From positions 4,774,001 to 4,838,000 of the forward strand of contig JAYWIR010000004.1 of assembly GCA_036172245.1 (NCBI GenBank): a stretch of DNA of 64,000 nt, given 5' to 3'. Positions 9,401-64,000 of the stretch are shown here, one piece after another. The translations under genes and the position numbers were made by a program. Position 1 is the first letter of the stretch. Every line of letters begins with the position of its first letter. This DNA comes from Raillietiella orientalis (Eukaryota). The notes below the pieces were generated by a model. The model was given only the letters and a program-made list of their open reading frames with translations, had not been told where the DNA came from and searched no databases.

Positions 9401-10407
9401 CTTCCGGCTGCTAATTTCTTGAACTCTGTTCTATTCCGAAGAGATCAGCTGTCGTAAAGTCTCGCTATTTTCCAAGAAGAAACCTCTGTTCATAAAGGCA
9501 GACTCAATCTTCCTTGAACATCCTTTGAACATCCGTTGAACATCAACAGCAATACTCTGAGCAGCCTTGACTAGAATGAGAATCCTTTTCCTAAAGATTT
9601 TCACTCTGCAACATCGGGCCGTTTATCTAAGAAAAATAAACAGGCAAATTGGGGAAACTGCTCCCGAAACACCAAAAGCATAATTAGGAAACAAAAGAAG
9701 TTCAAGGGGAGGGTGCGCCGACACTCAGGTCGAGGTTCCTCAAAGTCCGGAACGGAAGGAAAGGGACAAAAAATAAATAAATAAACGTGGAGGGTGGGGA
9801 CAAGGGTCTTTGGTTTGTCTCGTTCCTTCTTGAAAAACTGGGAAAAGTCCGGGACGAGTGGGAGAGGGAAAATTAGAAACTGAATAAATAAACGGAGGGT
9901 GTGATGGCCGTTCCTTCTTTCTAAAACCGACTCTGAATGCCGGCGATCTCCTTTTAGACTTCTGCGTGAGGCCACTTAGCAGCTATCTCCATGTATACGG
10001 CTGCAATACAGGTGACCTCCCTTCGCTGCTTCTGAAACCGCAGCGAATGGGGAGCTGTGACGATGGAGCGGATGCAGCATGTCTCGCAATCACACCGCTT
10101 GTCGTGACTCCACCTCTTGAGAAGAATCGCCTCAGTATGAAAGAGTGCTGAAGTCAACCTCTGCCAAAGTTCCTGGAGGGCACTGCAGTCCAGCAGCAGG
10201 CGTGGGAACGATTCAATCGCCTGCACCTTAAGAAGCTTGGGGATGGAACTCCCCCGAAAGCCAGGTTCCTATGCTGGTTGTACTGGAGACTCTAGTGCAG
10301 AAACAGCAGGATATCCTGTTTCCACTTCAAGGGACACACAGACTTTCCCAAAGATGGTGATGCAGGTGGCAATAGTGGCTCGCGTCAACACATTGCAAGA
10401 TGGCACC

Positions 10408-10566
10408 TATGTTTACGTGTTGTGTCATACCGCCTTCACGCATCCAAGCAATTTCCACCGGTACTTTAACACACGCGATCAGCTTCAGAGAAGTTTCCTT
10501 TGTCCTGCCTGCAAGAAAACTTTCAATCGTCCTGCCAACATGACGAATCACATGCTCACTACACTG
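10408..10566 (+). pseudogene. Decayed tandem C2H2 zinc-finger pair, Tramtrack (ttk p69)-like
   Basis: 'YVYVLCHTAFTHPSNFHRYFNTRDQLQRSFLCPACKKTFNRPANMTNHMLTTL' aligns with the ttk69 fingers as I recall them ([24 protein letters not shown]...[24 protein letters not shown]). Several Zn ligands are lost: TGC>TAC, CAC>TAC, and both final His residues. Confidence 0.7.
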
Positions 10567-11749
10567 TGTCTAGTGTTTACGCTTGCGTATTACTCTGATT
10601 GTTCCTATCGAGAGGAAACACTCTGTGTTTCAAGTTTCCACTTGCTACATTTTCAAACAAGTACCTTGTTCTTGCACCCATTCGCACAAGAGCATCAACG
10701 TCGTTGGTAGAGTTGCGAAAGAGTTCATCAGACAAAATCACTAGAAAGAAGGGCAGCAGTGCTACCAGGTCTGCGATTTTCCAGATTCCTACTGCAGCAG
10801 TAACAGCACGAAATCAAGGTCTTCCGCCACGTATTCAACTTTGAGAGCACCCGCACATGGAGATGCAAACTGGAAAAGAAAGATGAGGACGAATACCTTC
10901 TTGTCATACTCTCCTTCCATCCGCAAAGGTGTGAGCTCAGTCTGAGTGCAAAGTCACGGTGGACAGTCCAATGTGACTCATGATGAGTCAAGGAGGCACG
11001 TGGAGGAAACCGTAGACTAAACTGCCACTGTGCTGTTTATTGCTAGGGGTTGAGTTAACATCATAAGTATTATCGGTCCCATCTGCTGATTCCATTGATT
11101 GGAAAGAGTTGTCAGAATCAGCAGCTGCGTGTCCTCTTTGAATGCTTCTCTGCTGTTCACTTTTACAAGAAAACGGGCGGCATTTTTGCGAAGTTACTTT
11201 CCCGTTCCGAATGCAGTCTCGGAAGCATCCAGTTTCATCTCTCGTTCTGATTTTCATCCGGAAAGGAAAATAAAAACCGCGTGAGTGTACGATCACACTG
11301 ACTTCGGAAATACCGAGCACTTTTGGACTGCTAAACAGAAATAAGAGTCCCATTTTCCGGAGTCTCTTTCCTGCTTTCGGTGAAAGAGTCATGTGAACGA
11401 GCCCGATAAAGCGTTGGGTACTTCCGAAGAATTACGCACCATTCACACGGAGCTTTCACCGGAAACTTTCTTCACAGGAACAAGACTCTGGAAAATGGGA
11501 CTCTTCCATTTGCGTTTAGCAGCGCAAACAGCAGCAGCAGCGAAATACAAAATCCATCATCTTGCGATGTACCTAATTTACGTCAAATTGCACTCTATCT
11601 TCAGCCAGCTTTATGTCACGTTATGCTGAACCTGACAGGAAACCCCGATTGGAATGAAATTTCCTCCATCGAACTGCCATTCTCTCTTGTTTTGCCCTCA
11701 ACTCCAGCCTTGGCGTTTCGGATAGTATGACAGCAAATTATAGGTGTGG

Positions 11750-26199: not shown

Positions 26200-27400
26200 A
26201 GTTCCGTCCGTGTCTCGCCCAGGTGGGGCCATCTCGAGGCGGTCCTCAGGAAGATCTGCTCCAGTGGACGACTGTCCTGCCATTTCGATCTCTTATTCTA
26301 AAGTTCCAGGCCGCCACGATCCCTCGAGGACAGCAGAAGACTGTGAGCGACGCTTCCGGTGGCAGTGCGGCACCGCGCACTGAAGGGGCATCTCAAAATG
26401 TCCCTGGACCGCCCACCAGGGATCCTGGGGTCTCTGCGAGGTCGCTCCAAAGGAGTCGGGGAGCAGCACGGTCCAATAGCAGGTGCGGGAGGGTCTCCTT
26501 CTTCCTTCATCCACCTCCCCCCACGTCTAGTTGTGAAGGGGAGCTTTGCACGGGATTCCCCCATGAACCACCAGCAACGCCGACTCCTGCCACTCGAGGG
26601 AGAGGGCACCACTGTTCCAGCACTCTGGGGTCCACTCCACCGCCTCCAGGGGGACTCCGAGTAACTTTTCCCCAGCGTAGAAGTCCTTGGGGTGGGCCAC
26701 TTGAAGTCGCAGCATCCATGACCTCCCGAATCGTCCATGCACCCAGAAGTTTCTCTTTTGCTGCGATGTATTTGGCTTCGCACATTGCCGAGATTGCGCT
26801 GTTCCTTGTGTCCCTTAGGGAGGGTGGCACTGGGGCAAGGGGAGTGGACGAGGCCCGCCGCATCTCCTGCGGGTTGACCTTCTCCGGAGACTTGAGAGAG
26901 TGGATGCCTCGCGGCAGGCAGGCTTGCCCCGCCTCGCTCGCGCTGTGGATCTTCCTCCAGACGAAGACCGACTCCTGGAATCGGGCAGTACGGTTCTCGG
27001 GGAGGCAGGAGATCCAGGTGTTCTCCACCAGGGCAACCATCTGGAGGAGTTGGTATATCCTCAACACCGCCTCAGCAACTTCTCGCGAGCAACGAGGAGG
27101 GACACGAGTCCCGTGCAGCTGGTTGAGCTCTTCGCGGGCAGGCGTGCTGGTGCAAATCAAATCGTGGTCCATAGTCTCGCCTCGGGGACGAGTCTTCTGA
27201 ACTGGAGCTGGCGCTTCATTCTCTCCAGAGTAAACTGACCAAGTCCACCATCCCTACGCAGACTCCGGACTCTGGACCTCCCTGTGTTCCGCAAGACTTT
27301 TATTAGGAGGTCCTCCGTCCTGCTCTTGATGGCAGTAGGGGCGGTCCGTGAGGCTCCGACGGCATCGCACGGTCCGTCCCCGGACTGCGGTGCAGCTCCC
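26200..27400 (-). mobile_element. L1/Tx1-clade LINE ORF2 C-terminal remnant (post-RT and zf-RVT region)
   Basis: Three ordered motifs in different frames: 'RRDGGLGQFTLERMKRQLQFRRL' (~27190-27260), 'QESALLVVHGGIPCKAPLH' (~26535-26590), 'KKETLPHLLLDRAAPRLLWSDL' (~26438-26505). Confidence 0.65.
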
Positions 27401-42899: not shown

Positions 42900-45360
42900 G
42901 GTTGGCCTACCCACAGTTGTCCACCTAACATCCCAGATTGGACTGTTTTGTGGCCCTTCGCAGGTGGACAGTAGCGACGGCAAACGCCTCTCCAGGATGG
43001 CGGTTGCACCCTACCTCCCTTCTGGCTGCCACCGCTGCTCTCATGAGGCAGAGGGTTGCCAGCGAGGAGACATCCAGTAAGCCCCACGAGGGACCCACTT
43101 CTTGGAAGCGGTTTCCCTCCCTCATCTCCCGTCCCATTCTCTCTCTTTGAGGGGCGCGCGCCAAAGTGCTTCCTCGCTCCCTCGGAGGGAACACCCCTTG
43201 GTCGCTATCCCCGTCGGGGCGCGTCGACGTTTCTCCGCTTCGGAAGAGGCCCCACTGGACCAGCAGCAAGATGGCAGCCTGTTGGTGACGAAGGGAGGTC
43301 TTCAGAAAACCCCGGACCTTGGAGCTTTTCCGCAGGATCCAGAGAAACTCGACCCACATCTGCGAGTCCCGCCGAGCATTTGGATTCTGGCGTCGTCTCG
43401 TTCGCCCCATCCAAGACATTTACCACGGAGCGACAGCGTGACCGGGAGGAAGACCTGATTTCTTTCAGATCCGATTCCACTTCGCTCTTTTAGAAAACTT
43501 CATAAATCTCTATCCATAACAGGAGCGCATCTGCTGATGAAGCAGGGCCATCTAACCTGATGAGGGATGGGGGAGATGAACTTGTCTACCAGGTATATTT
43601 TCGCTCGTAGGTGGCTAAGTGCTCCTACTTATTAGGTTCAGCCTCGCAAGTCACGGCTAATTGCAGAAATAGGGAGCATCTCTGAAATCTTCTTGGACGG
43701 TCACTAGAGGAGCCAGATTTTCCAATTACCGATAACCTTCCGTGATCGGAGGAATGCCAAATGGCAGCTGGGCGACTCGGACGCTCGGCAACATCGCAGA
43801 TGCACAGTTGCAGGTTCTGTTTTTAAAGGAGCCATGAAAATCAACTGTGGGAAGAGGAGAGAGGGGGACGGATTGTTGGTTAAACTGTAATCAAATCCCA
43901 AACGCACGCACTCCACGATGCACCACATTATCAACGACAGCATCATCTGCCCTGGAGCGTTTTGATTTGCTCCACGCTTTCTACCTGAAAATCAAGAAGA
44001 TGGAGCGCCACACTGGCCAGGATCAAGCTGGAGGAAACCCTAGTGAAGGTCCTCAGCGATCCTAGCGTGCGAAGAAGTCGTAAGAGGTAGTGGTGGTGAC
44101 GGAAGACGAATCGAACTATCTAGTAGCCGTTCCCCTCAGAATAGGTGTCGCTCTTCGAAGAGGGAGTAAGAGGGGGAAGCTCGTTTGATAAATGGAATGA
44201 TTAGATGTCTTAGAGACGAAATGAGCGCTAACTGATCTCAACCCTTTGGCGAAAAGTCCGGCTTGCTTGCGCGTTGAAGCTTGGACCCACATTCCACCTA
44301 TGAGTGCCACCAGTGAACCAATTTTGGTAAGCAGAACTGGTGCTGAGAGATGAATCGGATGTTGAGGTTACAGCCGTCCGGTGCAGTGCTTTCTGGATCC
44401 TATGGAAGATGTTAGTTGCTAAGATCAGCAGGAAGGTGGTCACAAAAGTCGAATCCGTTCAGAATTGTCGGCAACGACTCGCCCGCCTAAGAAATCGGCC
44501 CTGGAGATGGGAAGATGCTCAGGATCCATACCTGTACTTGACCTCTGAGACAGAGCCGTTCCTGCCTTCCGGTGTTCCAGCATCGAAGGACGGCAGGCTC
44601 TTCAGCTTCCGGTGAGCAGGAGGGTCGCGAAGGCGCGCGTAGAAGGGCTTGGGTGCTGGCTTTCCTGGAGACCTTGATGGTGACAGCAAATACTTCAGCG
44701 AGATCCTGGATGTCTGATGAGGAGGGTCCCATGTGGACAGTCCCCGGGCACGGTCCAGGAGCCCCCCTAGAAATCCACCCTGCAGTGCGGGCGGCAGTGC
44801 CACTCTGCGTTCGAACACCTCGCGAACCGGAACGAAAGGAATCCGGTACGTATTCCAGAAGCTGGCACCAAAGAGCAGTGCTCATTAATGTTCCAGAGAT
44901 GAAACACTGTCCAAAAGAAACCGTAACAGGCGTCTTCGAAGCTCTTTTGCAACTTCACAAACTAAGGAACCTGGGGCGCTTCTTTGACCACCGACTGTAC
45001 GTAGTTTTCGGAGACCAGAAATCGAATTTCCATTCAGAAGGATACACTCGTGATGGAAACTTAGGTCCGCGGTCATTGTTTGCGATCTTCTCCATAGGGA
45101 AGACCTCAAACGCTTGAGAGCAAGGGGCATGGACATTGGCGAAACGACAAAGAAATCCACCTCGCTGAATGCAGGCTGGCCGATTCTTCGAGATCCTTCT
45201 GGAAGGCGGGGAAACTCAAGTTTGTAACAGCAGTCGGTTTCAGTGATGCGAAAGGGCTTACACATCTGGTCAAAGAGGCTCAATCTGAAAAAAATTGATT
45301 TGTCGATGGGAGTCATCGAGCGTCGCAAAGTTTGAATGAGAAAGTTGCGTGATCTCAACG
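42900..45360 (-). mobile_element. L1/Tx1-clade ORF2 remnant (RT to C-terminus, discontinuous)
   Basis: 'RSMTPIDKSIFFRL' (~KAFDRVDHxYLFRV), 'IQRG...FEVFPMEKIANNDRGPKFP' (~IQRGVRQG..LEPL..KIRNN..IRGFKLP), 'KPFYARL', 'WVEFLWILRKSSKVRGF' (~EHxFWxCxKV..FW). Confidence 0.4.
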
Positions 45361-56707: not shown

Positions 56708-56715
56708 ATGCAGAC
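56708..56715 (+). CDS. AHNAK/periaxin-like gene, predicted first coding segment (ATG CAG AC|)
   Basis: AAACA-ATG has A at -3 and an in-frame TAA at 56702-56704. A strong donor GTGAGT follows at 56716. Phase 2 matches the 58599 acceptor, giving MQTSDVQRVLVPLRG. Confidence 0.55.
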
Positions 56716-58598
56716 GTGAGTACCGACCAAAGTTGTTGTTTCCTGTCGCCCTTCCTGTCCTCCCCCACCCCAGCGCCATGCAGGGAAGACGCCTGCGTGC
56801 CCCTTCGGAGAGGGCAGGGAGCACCTCGGGCGCGGAGAAAATGCGCGTGCGCGCGCGAACTGCGAGCGGAGGGGAGCCAGCGGGAAAACCCGGCGCGTCC
56901 CTGGGGCGCGGGTGCGCGTCGCGACGAGATCGGGTGCCCCTCTTCCGGGATTGGAAGCGCGTCGGCAGGTCCCGGAGGAGGGATGAGACGGGTGGGCGCG
57001 TCTGTCCCTGCGTCACGGCGAGTTCCGGCCGCCCCTGTCTCGAGGTTCCCTACGCCTTCCACGCTTGCGCACGCCGCGCTCAGAAGGACAGCGGGGGAGG
57101 CTGAAGCCCGTCGCTGCGCTACGAACGGGAATCCTTTTGTTGTTTTTGTTTTTGTTTTCGTTCTCTCCACATCTTCTTTGCTTTGATGGGGTGGGAGGTG
57201 AAGGGAGCTTCGCCGCGGAGCGGTCTGGTGCCGCTCGCGCAGGCAACTCGCTCGCGGGCGCCATTTGGAACGCAGCGTGGCGTCGTCGTCCCGGTTTCCC
57301 GGAAGAAATTTCGATCCTTGCATGCGTGAGCGCGTGCCTCGAGTCACGCGTGCGTGCGTGAGTGCTCTAGAGAGCATCCCCTCCCCCTTTCTGCGGCTGA
57401 GCGGCTCTTCATCCCCCGTCTGCCCACGCTTTTGCGCAACACTCGCCCTCCCTCCGGGACGCTTCCGTGAGGAACCGTCGCCTGTGGTGGCTCTCTCGGG
57501 TCCCTTCCCCCGCAGGCACCATGGTCAGCCGAGGCAGCAGGGAGGTCGCCGGAGAGGAAGGATGAGCGGTCTTTTCAACTCTCTTCCCCCCCCCCCCCCG
57601 CAGAAAGCAGCCTGCAAGGTGGAGGGAGAGAACGAACTCCTCTCCCCCGTCCCCTCCCTACCTTTCCCCCTTCCCACGGTGTATGCATGAACATGAGGGC
57701 ACGTGCTCGCTCTCACGGAAAAGAAACGGAAGCTCCCTCTTCCCCCAAGAGCTGAAGGCTCGTCGATTTCAAAAGTGGTCGCCAGATGCCAGACACTCCC
57801 GGGGCTGCTCGCCTCTCAACAGGGGTGCCTCGGAGCGTCAAGGAGCGATCTCCCCGCAGGAAGCCCTTGCTCCTGAGGAGGGGAGATCGAGAAGAGGGAT
57901 ACCCTCTCCCTCTTCGCGCTTGGGTCTCTGCTGCTTCGCACTCGTAACCCCTTGCCGTTGTCTCTCCAGCTCGTCCTTCCCCCGTCTGTCTCTGAGGTGG
58001 CTCTCCTGCAAGCAGGGAACGACGGGTCTGGGACGAGACGGAGCCGAAAGCTGCCCGATCGGTGGGACGGAGTAAAGGGATGGAAGGGAGAGGGAAGGAG
58101 AAGGTTCTCTGAGCGTGAGTCCCTCTTGGACCTCTTTGCAGGCGCATCTCGAGGACTGCCCTTGACCCGACCGCCCTCACCCGGAAAAAGTAAGTCCCCT
58201 TGTCCGATCCACCCCGTTGGGCACTCATTGCCTCGTCGGGACGCTCCAGACCGGGATGCGTCTCCCCCCCACCTTTGTATGGAAGGCTCTCGGAGAGCCG
58301 CGTGTCCCGGCAGCGTGGGGCTGCGCGGAAGAGCCTGTCGCTCCCTGCTTGCAGAACGGCCACCTCAGGGACAAACGCTTCCCTCCTCCAAGCCCTCCTC
58401 TCCCCCCCCCTCCCCCCGATCCCGAGTTCGGGGAGCGGTCCGGGAGGGAGGGCGCGCTTCCCGCGGTCTCCCAGGAGTCACTCGACCTCCCTCTCTATGG
58501 AGCTGGCGCCTCAGGGTCGCTGCTTTCGGCCTCCCTCCCGAGTTCCCGCACCCCCGGAGCCGTGACAACGACCCCACTACACCGTTCTGGTGTTCCAG

Positions 58599-58747
58599 AA
58601 GTGACGTCCAGCGAGTGTTAGTGCCCCTCCGGGGCCACACGGGCGACGGCCTGGGGCTCAGCGTGTGTGGCAACAACGAAGAAGGGGTGTTCGTCAGCGA
58701 CGTGGTCGCCGGCGGCGAGGCCCACCGGAGCGGCAAGGTACACGTTG
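58599..58747 (+). CDS. AHNAK/periaxin-like gene, PDZ exon A
   Basis: Acceptor TGTTCCAG|, donor G|GTAGGT. Encodes SDVQRVLVPLRGHTGDGLGLSVCGNNEEGVFVSDVVAGGEAHRSGKVHV(G), a clear PDZ N-half. Confidence 0.9.
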
Positions 58748-58909
58748 GTAGGTCAGCCCTTCCGACCCCCTCCGGCTTCCCGCCCCCTTCTCTCCTCCTT
58801 TTTCCCAGCCCTTTCTGTGGTCGCGTCTCTTCCCCTCGGGCGGGCCGATGTCACCCCATCCCCCCCCCCCCATGAACCGACTTTGGGCCCACCTCCGCCC
58901 GGTTTGCAG

Positions 58910-59127
58910 GAGACAGGATCGTGGGCGTGACGGTCCACTTCGACGGCTGCCGACGGGAAGACGCCCTGGCGATCCTCTCGTACTGCGCCCCATGCCACCT
59001 GCTGCTGCACTTGGAGAAGACCTCGTGGTCTGCCGCCCCGCGGTACCTGGACTGCGCGGACGAGCAGGTGGCCTATCGCGTCTGCCACCCCATGTACCGG
59101 TCAGGATCCTTCGACGACATCACTCAG
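58910..59127 (+). CDS. AHNAK/periaxin-like gene, PDZ exon B
   Basis: Acceptor TTTGCAG|, donor CAG|GTGCGT. Encodes GDRIVGVTVHFDGCRREDALAILSYCAPCHLLLHLEK...HPMYRSGSFDDITQ. Compare, from memory, AHNAK GDQIVGATIYFD and periaxin EDALRLLQCAEPYKV. Confidence 0.92.
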
Positions 59128-60985
59128 GTGCGTGCGGAAACGCTGTCTTTGCTCGGGGAGGGGGGGGGAGCGCTGCGTCATCCCGGCAACGCGGAACGCA
59201 AAGTTTCGGCTCCTCCCACCACCTCCCCCTCCGGCAACGGGAGGGGAAGGGCGCGCAGACCCCAGAGGGAGGGAGGAAGGAGGCACTGAAGAAGGGGCGG
59301 GAGGACGTCCCCTGCATATCCTGGAGGCAGCGCGCCGCCTCTTCCCCGCAGTCCCGGCCCGCAAGAAAGCTTCCTGGTTCCAGGGAAAACACGCCCTGGT
59401 TTCGGGTCGCGTGCCTTTTCCCACCGGGCAAGCGGCAACCCTTCTGGCCCTACGGCCTGATTTCGCCGCTGGCTGGAACGCGCGCAGGGTTGGGTGGAGG
59501 TCAGCGGGGAGTCGCTCGCACCCTTCCCTCCGAGGAGCGCGCAGACGGTCGCGGGTGGCGTGGCCCCACGGGTCGAATGGCGTGGAGCCCGAGAAGCCCC
59601 TTTGGACCTGCTCCCCCGACCCAGTGCACACGGAGGCGAGAAGAGCGCGTTCGCGTCCGCTGCCCTCAGTTGCCTAGGTGAGCCCCCCTCGCTCTTTGTT
59701 CTCTTTCCAGCCGTAAAGGGCGTCACCGCCAACCCTTCAGTCGTTGCCCCCTGCGTGAGTTCTTCTCTTCCTCTTCCTTCTGCTTGGCAGAACCCACTCC
59801 CCATCCCTCCATCCCCGGACGAAATGGGCGTGTCCTCCGGGGGTCACCTTCGCGTTGTGTCGCCGGGCGCGTAGCCACCGATGCGAGGGCCACGGCACCG
59901 GTTACCGCCGGCGACTGCGGACGTTGGAAGCTGTCTGCGCCATGCGCAACTTCGGGATGCAGGCATCCCGCCCTCGTGCTCCTCCGCTCCGTAGCGATGC
60001 TGACTGCGATGCTGCCTCATCCCCTCGTTATGCTGCATCTTCTGCGGAGCGGATTCGCGTTTCATGATGATGATGAGGAGGAGAGGAGGCGTGTTTCTTC
60101 TCTCTCTCTCTCTCTCTCCCCCCCCCCCTCCAATGCTTCCGTGAGCGCGCGACGGCGCTCGGAGCTCGCGCGCACGCGAGCAGCTAGACGGGACGCTGCT
60201 GCCGACGCTCGGCCGAACGGGAGAGGAGGAAAGGTCGACGGCGTCGTCGGCGGCTGCCGACCTATTTGGAGGAGAACGGGTCACTGCGACGACCGAAAGG
60301 GAGTCCTCCTTTTCGACTGCGCGCCTCGACGAGGGAAGGCGAGGACGGAGGGAACGAGGCATCGGGTTGATGTGGCAATCCAGCGGCCCCTCCCGTTCGG
60401 CGGGTTCCCAAGGTGCCTGCGGGCAGGAAAGGAGGAGATGAGAGGGCGGCGCTCAGTGCAGCCAGCGCTACCAGACGTCTCCCTCGTCGCCTTCCCCTCG
60501 CTGTCCCGCAAGTCGGTCCGAGCGTTCGAGGACCACGAAACCACCCAGCAGGTGATATCGCTGCTGCTTCCGCTGCCGGCTGGTGCGCGTGCGAATCGGC
60601 CCAGCGGTCTGCTCGCACCCTGCATGGCATCGTACGTGTCCGCTTGCTCGCAACTGACCCTCCCCCCTCCTCTCCCCTCCTCCTCCTCCTCCCGACGCAC
60701 AAGCGAGTCACCTTATGTTGCCGGCAGTGGTGAGGTTTGACTGCAGGACTGCTGCCTGCGCTAGTCCGGACGACGCCAGTGGGTGCTGTCCTTTATTCCT
60801 CTCTCTCTTTCGCCTCCCATTCTCTCCTGCTTTGCCTTCGCCTATGTGTGCGCGCGCGCGCACGCATATGGCCGCCGCCGCAGCAGCGGCAGCGGCAGCC
60901 ATCTAGCGGATAGCGTCCAAACCGAGCGCCTGGGCTGGCGGAAGCGAAGGCGCATGCGAAGGCATCCCAAGTTCAATTTTTGCAA

Positions 60986-61014
60986 TTGTTGTTGTTGTTG
61001 TTGTTGTTGTTGTT
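60986..61014. repeat. (TTG)9 microsatellite in intron, 70 nt before the large exon
   Basis: Direct inspection. Confidence 0.95.
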
Positions 61015-61083
61015 TTTCGGATCGATCACAGATCCACGCATGGTTGACACTCGTTTTCAAGTAACGAAATTTCTGACATGTAG

Positions 61084-63439
61084 GCAACCAGAAAATTTAG
61101 AAACGATTTCGATAGTGTTCCGGTGCGCGATGTGCCCGAAGATGACCGAGGACGAGCACCGGTCGAGGACGGCGAGAGCGGGGGCGGCGGCACGGCCTCC
61201 TCCCCTGCTCGTGACGAGGAAGCGGGCGGAAGCAAGCCGGAAACCCCGAAGAAGACGAAGCGCGCACCCACGCCCAAGACGCACAAGAACTTCCTGAAGG
61301 CCGGACTGTGCCTGCACCCGCACCGCGGCTCGGACGCGGACAACTTCTATTACCAACGCGCGAAGGGAGACGCCGCCGCCCACGAGGCGGCCGCACCCGA
61401 CCCTGTAAGTAAAAGGGAAAGCGCCCCCACCGTGCTCGCGAGAGGGTCGCGTTCCTCCGACCAGCCGGAGGGAAGCGCGCCAGCAAGAGGGGATTCCTCT
61501 GCGCGGCAGGCGGCGAAAGGCGGCGCCCGCGAGAGGAAGCGGAACCGGGACGAGAAGGAAGAGGAGGAGAAGGAGCGAGCGAGGCGCGGCGCGGAGTCCA
61601 GGGAGACGCCAGAGTCGGAGGAGCGACTGCCCCAGTTCGTGAGCGCGGACTCCAGACGCGCGGAGGAGGACCAGGAAGAGGAGGAGGAGGTGGGGCGAAA
61701 GGAAGAACGAGGTCCTTCTTCGTCCGGCAAGAAGAAGAGCAAGCTCTTCCAAAGGTTCAACACCAACCCGACGCCCAGCATCAAGAAGATCAAGGAAGCG
61801 AAGCAAGTCTCGGGTAGCAAGGACGTTGCGAACGGGGTGCGGGTGGACCACGCGGCCGAGCGCCCGGAAATGTCCCGGAAGGAGGAACGGCCGCACAAGG
61901 CGCAAGTGGGCAAGGCGAGGTCGTTCAACCTGAAGCCCTTCCACAGGAAGATTCCCCGCGCTGCCGGGAAGGACAGCAGCCCAGACGCGCCGGACCCGCT
62001 GCCGGCGCGGCCTGACACGGTCCTGGCTCCCAAGTCGCTGACTCTGCCGAGCAGGCGCCTTCCCCGAGGCCAGTGGGAAGGCGGGACTCTGCGGAGCGAG
62101 GCGCACGGTTCTGGCCCTGCCTCCAAGGGGGCCGGAGCGAGCCCTTCCGCGCGCTCAGCGGAAGCCCGCGTGCGGCCCCGTGCCCCTTCCTCCTCCTCCT
62201 CTTCTCCCCCGGACGGACAGCCGACTCCCTCGATCAAGAGAGAGGAGGAGCAGCAGTGCGTCAGCACCAGGCCGCCAGAGGGCGACGCGGCAGCAGAAGG
62301 TCCTGGCGCGTCCCGGAGCAAGAAGGGAGCGCGCGCCGACGATTCCATTTCCGATTTGAGAAGCTCGAGGACGAAAATGCCCCACTTCAGCTTTTCAAAA
62401 GTGAAGACGGATCCGAAGACTCGAATCGGCGGACGGGACGCCGCGATCGTTTCCCCGGAAAGTGGCGAACCCTCCGCAAAGCGGGAGGAGAGCACTCCCG
62501 TTCGGGAGGCGCTCGCGAACGACACTTCAGGAGCTCAGGTTCTCTCCGAGGCGGACGAAGAAGCCGGGAGCGACAGGGAGTCCGCGTCCACTCCCCGAAA
62601 CGCATCCGGAAAGCGGAAGAAGTTCCACTTCCCACGCATCGGGTTCCCCGACTTCGGCGCGCATGGCAGCAGCGCACCTCCGAGCGACCTGTCGCCCGAA
62701 GCAACCGCCGGAGGATGCTCCGCGGCACCCAAGCACGGAGGGAACCCCGGCGCGGAGCGGGACTTCCCAGGAGCCGCAACCCAGCAAGGAGGAGGAGGAG
62801 GAGGAGGTTCCGGAGCGGGCGTTTCCCTCGTCGCCAGCCCGACGAGTCCCGGGGTCAACGCCTGCGGCGACGCCCCGCATGCGGACCGGCGACCGGAGCA
62901 CGCCAGCCACGCACAGGATTACCCCGAGCGTCTTCCCCAGGTCCATCCGCCCGACGCTTCCCGTCGAACACAAGCGAGCAGGGAACACGTCATTATTCTG
63001 CACGAAAGGGAGACAGGCGACCCCCGAACCGGCGTCACGGCTGGCACCCCCGCTTTTCGTGCTTCCCGAACGAAGTCTCGGACTCCCTCAAAGCCCGGGA
63101 TGAGGGATGCCGCCCGACAAGCCGGAAACGCTGCTGTGGCCTTTGATTCGACTCGACCCGACGACGCTCCCCGCGGTGGCGACGTTGCGGCAGCAAAGGA
63201 ACGGCGCGGCCCGTCAGAAGATGAAGAACCGCATCCTTCGTCGGAGAATGAAGAGGCGGAAGATGTTGTGTGTGGTGCCAAGAAGACCCCGAGAATCAAA
63301 ACGCCTCATGTTGGCTTTCCTAAGATCAGGATACACACAAGAGTTCCTGAGCGCCAGCAGGCGCTTGCGGTCCAGAAGCAAACCACCCCCAGCGAGGCTT
63401 CGGCTGCTCGAGAGGACGACTCGCCGGGAACCCTGCAGG
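61084..63439 (+). CDS. AHNAK/periaxin-like gene, large low-complexity exon (~785 codons)
   Basis: Acceptor CATGTAG| is phase 0 and matches the 59127 donor. Frame 1 has no stop across 2.36 kb. Charged S/P/G/E/R-rich sequence with TKMPHFSFSKVK, KRKKFHFPRIGFPDFG and RIKTPHVGFPKIRI. Donor G|GTAAGA at 63440. Confidence 0.85.
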
Positions 63440-63495
63440 GTAAGATGACTAGACCTAAATGCCAAACGCAACTCCACATCACCCTGTCCTTGCAG

Positions 63496-64000
63496 CGAAC
63501 GCCGAAGCCGGTTTCTCCACCGACGAAGACAGTCGGCACGCGGAAGACTCAGTCTCGCCAGCCACGGGGCAGCACAGGAAGAAGAAATTCCACTTCCCGA
63601 ACATCAGCTTCCCTCATTTCGGGGCGACGGGTCACCCGACTCCAGAGAAAGACGACGACGCAGTTGATAAGACGACCTCTCCTGATGTCTCTGAAGAAAC
63701 GGACGTTCATTCACCAGAGGATAACCAACGAGAACATTCAAAGCTGCCCAGGGCGTCAACTCCCGAGCTCGAGACGGGACACGGTTCCTTTGCCGATGGT
63801 GACGAAGCTGACAAGCAGAAGGAAAAGTCCTTCACGATACCCCGCTTCGGTCTGCCCCACATTTCTTTGCCGATGTGGAAGAGCAAGAAAGGCATCGAGG
63901 AGAACTCGGTCTCTGCCGCCGCCTCCGTGTCTCTGCCGACAGGGAAAGAAGTTGACGTGGACGCCACAGCACCCAGGTTGGAAGGAAGTGCCGTATCTGC
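63496..64000 (+). CDS. AHNAK/periaxin-like gene, next exon (truncated by window end)
   Basis: Follows a 56-nt intron (GTAAGA...TCCTTGCAG), phase 1, frame 3. Encodes RKKKFHFPNISFPHFG, KSFTIPRFGLPHISLPMWKSKK and KEVDVDATAPRLEG (similar to AHNAK VDVxxPKxEG repeats). Confidence 0.85.

Follow-up and report, generated by a model that had tools for sequence, protein, structure and literature searches.

A gene at the downstream end of the 64,000-nucleotide stretch analysed here (the window; contig JAYWIR010000004.1 of assembly GCA_036172245.1, positions 4,774,001 to 4,838,000 of the forward strand) joins an N-terminal PDZ domain to a very large terminal coding region. With a probability of roughly 0.5, we place it in the AHNAK/AHNAK2/periaxin (PRX) family, as a divergent member in a non-vertebrate genome. 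The intron positions that it shares with human PRX are the strongest new evidence. In the predicted protein the resemblance to AHNAK and periaxin is real but weak and is limited to the C-terminal half of the PDZ domain (C-half); the N-terminal half (N-half) looks canonical. The more specific proposal is tentative: the host may be a protostome or another non-vertebrate animal, and the gene its true orthologue (or co-orthologue), of pre-vertebrate origin, of AHNAK, AHNAK2 and periaxin, with the PDZ-region introns, the giant exon and a possible short isoform preserved. We infer that all exons lie on one transcript and that the tail is homologous to that of the family.

Gene structure and coding signal

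Five segments on the + strand (56708–56715, 58599–58747, 58910–59127, 61084–63439 and 63496–64000) join into a frame of 1078 residues that contains no stop codon and does not close before the window ends. All four introns have GT...AG borders, and their lengths are 1883, 162, 1956 and 56 nucleotides (nt). The coordinates, borders and stop-free join bear out the five-segment, phase-consistent gene of the original prediction; the introns of ~56 nt that it had also described come down to one of the four. The exon junctions are predicted from the sequence only. The parts of the model are listed with the evidence for each in brackets; GC stands for guanine plus cytosine and ORF for open reading frame.

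56708–56715, + strand: candidate exon 1, ATG plus 5 nt, donor AC/GTGAGT, leaves phase 2 (read from sequence; uncertain)
56716–58598, + strand: intron 1, 1883 nt, GC 0.65, GT...AG (sequence)
58599–58747, + strand: exon 2, 149 nt, N-half of the PDZ domain, including EGVFVSDV and a GLGL motif that resembles a carboxylate-binding loop (Pfam PF00595, PDB matches, codon-position GC)
58748–58909, + strand: intron 2, 162 nt, phase 1, splits the Gly codon (G/GA) of 'GD' (sequence)
58910–59127, + strand: exon 3, 218 nt, PDZ C-half (DRIVGVTVHFDGCRREDALAILSYCAPCHLLLHLEK) plus a linker of 36 residues, ends in phase 0 with donor CAG/GTGCGT (AHNAK2 match, codon-position GC)
59128–61083, + strand: intron 3, 1956 nt, phase 0 (sequence; no Pfam domain on either strand)
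60462–60551, + strand: candidate 90-nt cassette exon within intron 3, phase 0 at both ends, PALPDVSLVAFPSLSRKSVRAFEDHETTQQ, donor CAG/GTGATA (codon-position GC 0.69/0.40/0.89, 35-codon window)
61084–63439, + strand: first part of the giant exon, 785 codons and 1 nt, disorder-type composition (long ORF; no Pfam domain)
63440–63495, + strand: intron 4, 56 nt, phase 1, GTAAGA...TTGCAG (frame and motif homology)
63496–64000, + strand: further part of the large coding region, without a stop up to the window end (sequence)

The exons carry a clear coding signal, with strong codon-position periodicity in the PDZ exons. At codon positions 1/2/3, exon 2 has GC fractions of 0.78/0.43/0.84 and exon 3 of 0.63/0.46/0.89; the values for exons 4 and 5 are 0.67/0.59/0.72 and 0.59/0.47/0.64. 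Both long introns are flat at ~0.63–0.66, and the 162-nt intron 2 gives 0.76/0.65/0.63. The probability that 785 codons stay open by chance at the local base composition is ~1e-9, and the observed ORF of 972 codons compares with 424 codons for the longest in 300 shuffles. A chance ORF in GC-rich DNA is rejected on these data. Judged by such sequence properties, the locus is a real multi-exon protein-coding gene.

The 5′ end of the model is its least secure part. With 8 coding nt, exon 1 ranks best among 277 phase-2 candidates that combine an ATG with a donor between 54000 and 58598 (rough donor matrix), and it is not secure; an alternative phase-0 acceptor for exon 2 is present at 58611/58612. 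The Pfam search covered all 196 ORFs of at least 117 amino acids (aa) in the window, the giant ORF being represented by its exon-4 part. It gave no further domain in the introns of the gene or on the strand opposite to it. ORFs of this size within intron 1 gave no Pfam domain on either strand at an expectation value (E) ≤ 0.001; a chance-level match to DUF4599 falls within the intron at 57819–58364 on the minus strand (E = 0.0082; 16.9 bits against a cutoff of 34). Intron 2 has a length divisible by three and contains one in-frame TGA (ORF end 58875).

Read-through of the exon 3 donor (59128–59289) adds 54 codons before a stop and gives a PDZ-only product of 179 residues. Retention of intron 3 could thus yield a short PDZ-only isoform like S-periaxin, a possibility that we raise by analogy. 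The candidate cassette exon within the same intron carries VAFPSLSRK, a hydrophobic-x-F-P-x-L-S motif, and has a good donor and a weak acceptor. It is speculative, and comparable periodicity is reached by other ORFs in the window. Downstream, the giant-exon ORF begins directly after a TAG whose AG doubles as the acceptor. The 56-nt intron 4 is required because only its removal gives the frame that carries motif copies D and E (see below). The long GC-rich introns of the gene also contain poly-C runs and microsatellites, among them (TC)10 and (TTG)9.7, at 57588–57600, 58860–58872, 60099–60118 and 60986–61014.

Comparison with periaxin, AHNAK2 and AHNAK

Intron positions were compared with those of human PRX only. 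L-periaxin is encoded by exons 4–7, and its first coding exon ends at c.27, which places the first intron in phase 0 (PMC10352492, which also describes p.Y77X). According to PMC12617670, exon 5 ends at c.184G, exon 6 runs from c.185G to c.381 and exon 7 starts at c.382 with Asn128. These published borders give coding exons of 27, 157 and 197 nt, followed by the giant exon. Since c.184 and c.185 are both G, PRX intron 5 lies in phase 1 within a GGN codon (Gly62), and the c.381/382 border places intron 6 in phase 0 after residue 127. Tyr77 is the eighth letter of VFFENFKYEDALRLL, and PRX Gly62 therefore sits 16 residues before the E of EDAL (PMC10352492 and the stretch printed in PMC3954830).

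The gene in the window has the same arrangement. Its intron 2 is in phase 1 within the codon of Gly53 (58747/58910), 16 residues before Glu69 of EDAL, and this is the spacing found in PRX. Intron 3, which adjoins the giant exon, is in phase 0 and follows residue 125; its PRX counterpart follows residue 127. The overall layout also agrees, with coding exons of 8, 149 and 218 nt here and then a giant exon of at least 2356 nt, as against 27, 157 and 197 nt and then exon 7 in PRX. In both cases three small coding exons supply an N-terminal PDZ domain and the giant exon supplies a repeat-bearing tail, which in the present gene is probably disordered. The original prediction had named two introns as family features, one in phase 1 at the Gly of 'GD' and one in phase 0 ahead of the giant exon. 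Both are correct for human PRX and both are present in the window, and the succession of small PDZ exons and giant exon likewise agrees with the family.

The two halves of the PDZ domain differ in what they resemble. Exon 2 alone reaches Pfam PF00595 (23.4 bits against a gathering threshold of 23.2, E = 8e-5, profile positions 8–45 of 81). The top PDB matches of its 49 residues are PDZ domains of DLG4 (PSD-95, PDZ3), INADL (PATJ) and MPDZ (E = 2.5e-7 to 4.5e-6), to which the N-half with its GLGL loop and EGVFVSD is most similar. The C-halves of these domains, in contrast, are unmatched by exon 3. DLG4, INADL and MPDZ contain several PDZ domains each and lack a giant disordered exon at the end.

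The C-half (DRIVGVTVHFDGCRREDALAILSYCAP...) gave no Pfam PDZ match at E ≤ 1; it is atypical in that the Pfam PDZ model fails on exon 3. In a set of 177,635 distinct PDB sequences with many PDZ domains among them, exon 3 matches only the PDZ domain of AHNAK2 (4cn0). The match is weak, with E = 0.28 for the whole exon and E = 0.074 for the 38-residue PDZ part; DRIVGVTVHFDGCRREDALAILSYCAP aligns with 4cn0 without gaps, and 12 of 32 residues are identical. The atypical C-half pattern of the family (V-x-F-acidic ... EDAL ... L ... P, between strand 4 and helix 2) was examined and gave a weak match to AHNAK2 only. Exon 3 is also identical, without gaps, to the PRX stretch VFFENFKYEDALRLL at 8 of 15 residues, as printed in PMC3954830. 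The resemblance of the C-half to AHNAK and periaxin in the original prediction is hence real but weak: AHNAK2 is the sole PDB match, at E = 0.07–0.28, and PRX is unmatched at E ≤ 10.

Other family members share the design more loosely. PMC10682155 describes small exons and one giant exon for AHNAK and AHNAK2, giant and small PDZ-containing AHNAK products, and repeat arrays of 128 residues in AHNAK and 165 residues in AHNAK2. AHNAK resembles the present gene in its giant exon flanked by small exons, whereas the exhaustive tail search gave no sequence match to it and the 128-residue central repeats are absent within the window. AHNAK2 has the small-exons-plus-giant-exon design as well as the C-half match; unlike AHNAK2, the gene shows no 165-residue array in the window. 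The L-PRX tail is described as disordered (PMC10682155 and PMC7072810), and S-periaxin is a short read-through (intron-retention) isoform of PRX (PMC12617670), a mode of production that the intron-3 read-through seen here parallels. According to PMC7072810, the PDZ domains of PRX and AHNAK2 form domain-swapped, intertwined homodimers, and the sequence homology of periaxin is said to be to AHNAK2 only.

The tail and competing explanations

The tail is rich in Ala (12%), Ser (11%), Pro (10%), Arg, Glu and Gly (9% each), contains 6.8% Lys and has few large hydrophobic or aromatic residues. It is probably disordered, as its composition and low hydrophobicity suggest, and the tail exon contains no Pfam domain. 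A strict motif, hydrophobic-x-hydrophobic-P-x-hydrophobic-x-hydrophobic-P, occurs three times (model residues 639, 942 and 1023), while shuffles predict 0.009 copies and none of 5000 shuffles contains three. The strict copies read KKFHFPRIGFP, KKKFHFPNISFP and KSFTIPRFGLP, and each is preceded by a run of Lys or Arg. Two looser copies lie at residue 556 and at about residue 862. The original prediction had spoken of K-rich F/M-x-F-P repeats; the repeated motifs are significant, whereas Lys amounts to only 6.8% of the tail and the K-richness is limited to the motif flanks. Within the family, the PRX tail has 55 short repeats, and the long tail of AHNAK also has repeated basic hydrophobic-Pro motifs. 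The motif and repeat copies are as follows.

62374–62406, + strand: loose motif copy A, KMPHFSFSKVK, residues 556–566 (A against C z = 5.9; 1 of 200 shuffles reaches the score)
62608–62667, + strand: motif copy B, GKRKKFHFPRIGFPDFGAHG, residues 634–653 (strict motif; homologous to D)
63280–63336, + strand: loose motif copy C, KKTPRIKTPHVGFPKIRIH, residues 858–876 (similarity to A)
63576–63632, + strand: motif copy D, RKKKFHFPNISFPHFGATG, residues 938–956 (strict motif)
63819–63893, + strand: motif copy E, KEKSFTIPRFGLPHISLPMWKSKKG, residues 1019–1043 (strict motif)
62263–62820, + strand: internal repeat copy 1, residues 519–704 (local alignment with copy 2)
63148–63800, + strand: internal repeat copy 2, residues 814–1012, spans the 56-nt intron (local alignment with copy 1)

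Copy D is homologous to the upstream copy B (z = 11.5; 0 of 200 shuffles). The two internal repeats make up a duplication of ~190 residues with an alignment score of 167, compared with 60 ± 10 for shuffles (z = 10.4; none of 300 reaches the score). The duplication in the tail is ancient. At the DNA level, no tandem array beyond microsatellites was found in the tail.

The competing explanation that survives best is a lineage-specific scaffold of a PDZ domain and a disordered tail that is not specifically related to AHNAK and periaxin, with EDAL, the intron sites and the motifs due to chance or convergence. We regard it as possible, if not the reading that we favour. It draws on most of the observations that weigh against membership of the family, and these are gathered here. 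The PDZ N-half is nearer to the canonical domains of DLG4, INADL and MPDZ than to the AHNAK/periaxin family; indeed, AHNAK2 and PRX are absent from the best 60 of the 122 PDB matches of exon 2 at E ≤ 10. The match to 4cn0 is weak (15–16.5 bits) and spans only 30–32 residues, and the periaxin PDZ domain was not matched by exon 3 at E ≤ 10 (PDB, phmmer). Gene structure contributes further differences. If exon 1 is right, the first coding exon has 8 nt and leaves its intron in phase 2, whereas that of PRX has 27 nt and a phase-0 intron after it. Exon 3 exceeds its PRX counterpart by 21 nt, and an extra intron of 56 nt interrupts the large coding region. The repeat unit occurs in only two copies with a period of about 300 residues in the about 950 tail residues seen, in a coding region that runs off the window, and the visible part contains no PEVK-like array such as that of PRX.

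The searches for homologues point in the same direction. An exhaustive phmmer search with the 785-residue tail exon against 1,835,955,588 representatives gave no match at E ≤ 0.001. The lack of a self match means that the proteins of this genome are absent from that library, and the lack of any tail match among the 1.84 billion representatives means that the tails of vertebrate AHNAK and periaxin are not detectably similar. Word searches were equally empty for the giant exon against proteins of 1375–3925 aa, for exon 3 against proteins of 127–2000 aa at E ≤ 10, and for exon 2 against proteins of 582–2000 aa, where the E cut-off of 0.01 is too strict for 49 residues. Exon 2 was queried as residues 242–290 of the stop-to-stop ORF 57877–58872, the other 241 residues of which are intron translation and only set the length class. 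Exon 5 gave only a chance-level match in the PDB, to a restriction enzyme (E = 0.4–1.1). In the ESM Atlas, exon 3 retrieved only sub-threshold bacterial GCS2 clusters, and the tail no usable match. Moreover, short basic-hydrophobic-proline motifs evolve readily in disordered proteins.

Chance or convergence accounts less well for the C-half and for the introns. The C-half matches AHNAK2 alone in the PDB and no canonical PDZ domain. The Gly codon that the phase-1 intron interrupts is the one interrupted in PRX, equally far from EDAL; the phase-0 intron next to the giant exon lies within two residues of the PRX position when counted from the start, and the overall layout is the same. These data are consistent with our preferred reading of the gene as a divergent AHNAK/AHNAK2/periaxin family member.

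It is unlikely that two genes have been joined in the model, namely a PDZ-only gene made of exons 1–3 and the read-through, and an independent large-ORF gene that starts downstream of 61084. The poor pyrimidine tract of the acceptor at 61083 would fit this arrangement, as would the stop that ends the exon 3 read-through at 179 residues and the ~2-kb length of intron 3, which may hold more exons. However, the large ORF is open from the acceptor TAG onwards and its first Met lies ~260 codons inside it, so that an upstream exon is needed. The phases also fit (0 to 0), and PRX is known to be built in this way and to have a short isoform made by read-through.

The host was judged from the composition of the DNA. 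The ratio of observed to expected CpG (CpG o/e) is 0.82–1.08 in all 16 of the 4-kb bins, including those at 45–48% GC. Vertebrate bulk DNA is strongly CpG-depleted. The ratio throughout the window thus argues against a vertebrate host. GC swings in blocks between 43 and 67%, with GC-rich DNA at 24–34 kb and 48–64 kb; this is an isochore-like structure without CpG depletion. A vertebrate host with an ordinary AHNAK or PRX paralogue, which the GC-rich, isochore-like swings and an amino-acid composition reminiscent of some GC-rich vertebrate genes might suggest, is highly improbable and is rejected on CpG o/e; the 56-nt intron is also short for vertebrates, and the tail matched no vertebrate AHNAK or PRX in the exhaustive search. 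The non-vertebrate part of the original prediction therefore stands. Its assignment to an arthropod is unsupported, resting on the one 56-nt intron and on a 'ttk-type finger', for which the match is a plain zf-C2H2 (E = 3e-6).

The rest of the window

The first 56 kb are unusually empty of Pfam domains among the ORFs scanned. Upstream of 56,400, the search covered the 300 longest of the 573 ORFs of 50–116 aa. Outside the gene, the scanned ORFs (151 of at least 117 aa and the 300 of 50–116 aa) gave only a generic C2H2 finger and no transposon protein. The finger belongs to a stop-to-stop ORF at 10141–10707 on the + strand, which contains one zf-C2H2 (Pfam, E = 3e-6, residues 119–140) and is uninformative as to taxon; it is probably the 'ttk-type finger' mentioned above. 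A lone degenerate fragment of eukaryotic large-subunit (LSU) rRNA lies at 43930–44749 on the + strand (Rfam RF02543, 175 bits, model positions 665–1888 compressed into 820 nt) and resembles a transposed segment or a pseudogene of rRNA. Rfam otherwise gave only two sub-threshold microRNA-like matches in the window, and no tRNAs were found in it. An ORF at 26510–27253 on the minus strand is non-repetitive and protein-like and shows strong codon-position GC periodicity (0.54/0.37/0.89, 35-codon window). It matches nothing in Pfam or the PDB and could represent an exon of an unrecognised gene in the GC-rich block. Arrays of (CT)n and (GT)n are present at 19.1–20.4 kb.

A possible scaffold and its proposed place in the family

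By analogy with the vertebrate proteins, we can suggest how the product may work. Three small exons would encode the N-terminal PDZ domain and the very large terminal coding region the long tail. The PDZ domain may bind the C-terminus of a partner, or it may pair with a second copy as the PDZ domains of PRX and AHNAK2 do. It would thereby anchor the flexible tail and make the protein a multivalent scaffold at the cell cortex, where the repeated basic-hydrophobic-proline motifs are putative docking sites for membranes or partners. A short PDZ-only regulator, comparable to S-periaxin, may arise when intron 3 is retained.

The literature that we read treats AHNAK, AHNAK2 and periaxin as a group of vertebrate proteins that stands apart, and a search within one literature library found no study of the AHNAK or PRX family outside vertebrates. 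The description of the family as usually vertebrate in the original prediction nevertheless needs a qualifier. Automatic 'AHNAK-like' names exist for gene 113809767 of the shrimp Litopenaeus vannamei and for a transcript of the sea cucumber Apostichopus japonicus, with the quoted peptide GPSLKGGADVEIPSGK. The gain is limited accordingly, in that such names are already in use in shrimp and sea cucumber and the case made here consists of weak similarity and gene structure. If the homology holds, the gene adds a distant member to a known family and does not represent a new kind of system.

A family member from a non-vertebrate that shares these intron positions would, if confirmed as such, serve as an outgroup. 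It would bear on how the atypical, dimer-forming PDZ domain arose from a canonical one, on which of the tail motifs are ancestral and on whether the intron-retention isoform switch is ancient. Should the gene be a true orthologue, the design of a PDZ head and a giant disordered exon, together with the splicing switch, would predate vertebrates and myelin, and its N-half would still be near-canonical, a state later lost in the vertebrate members.

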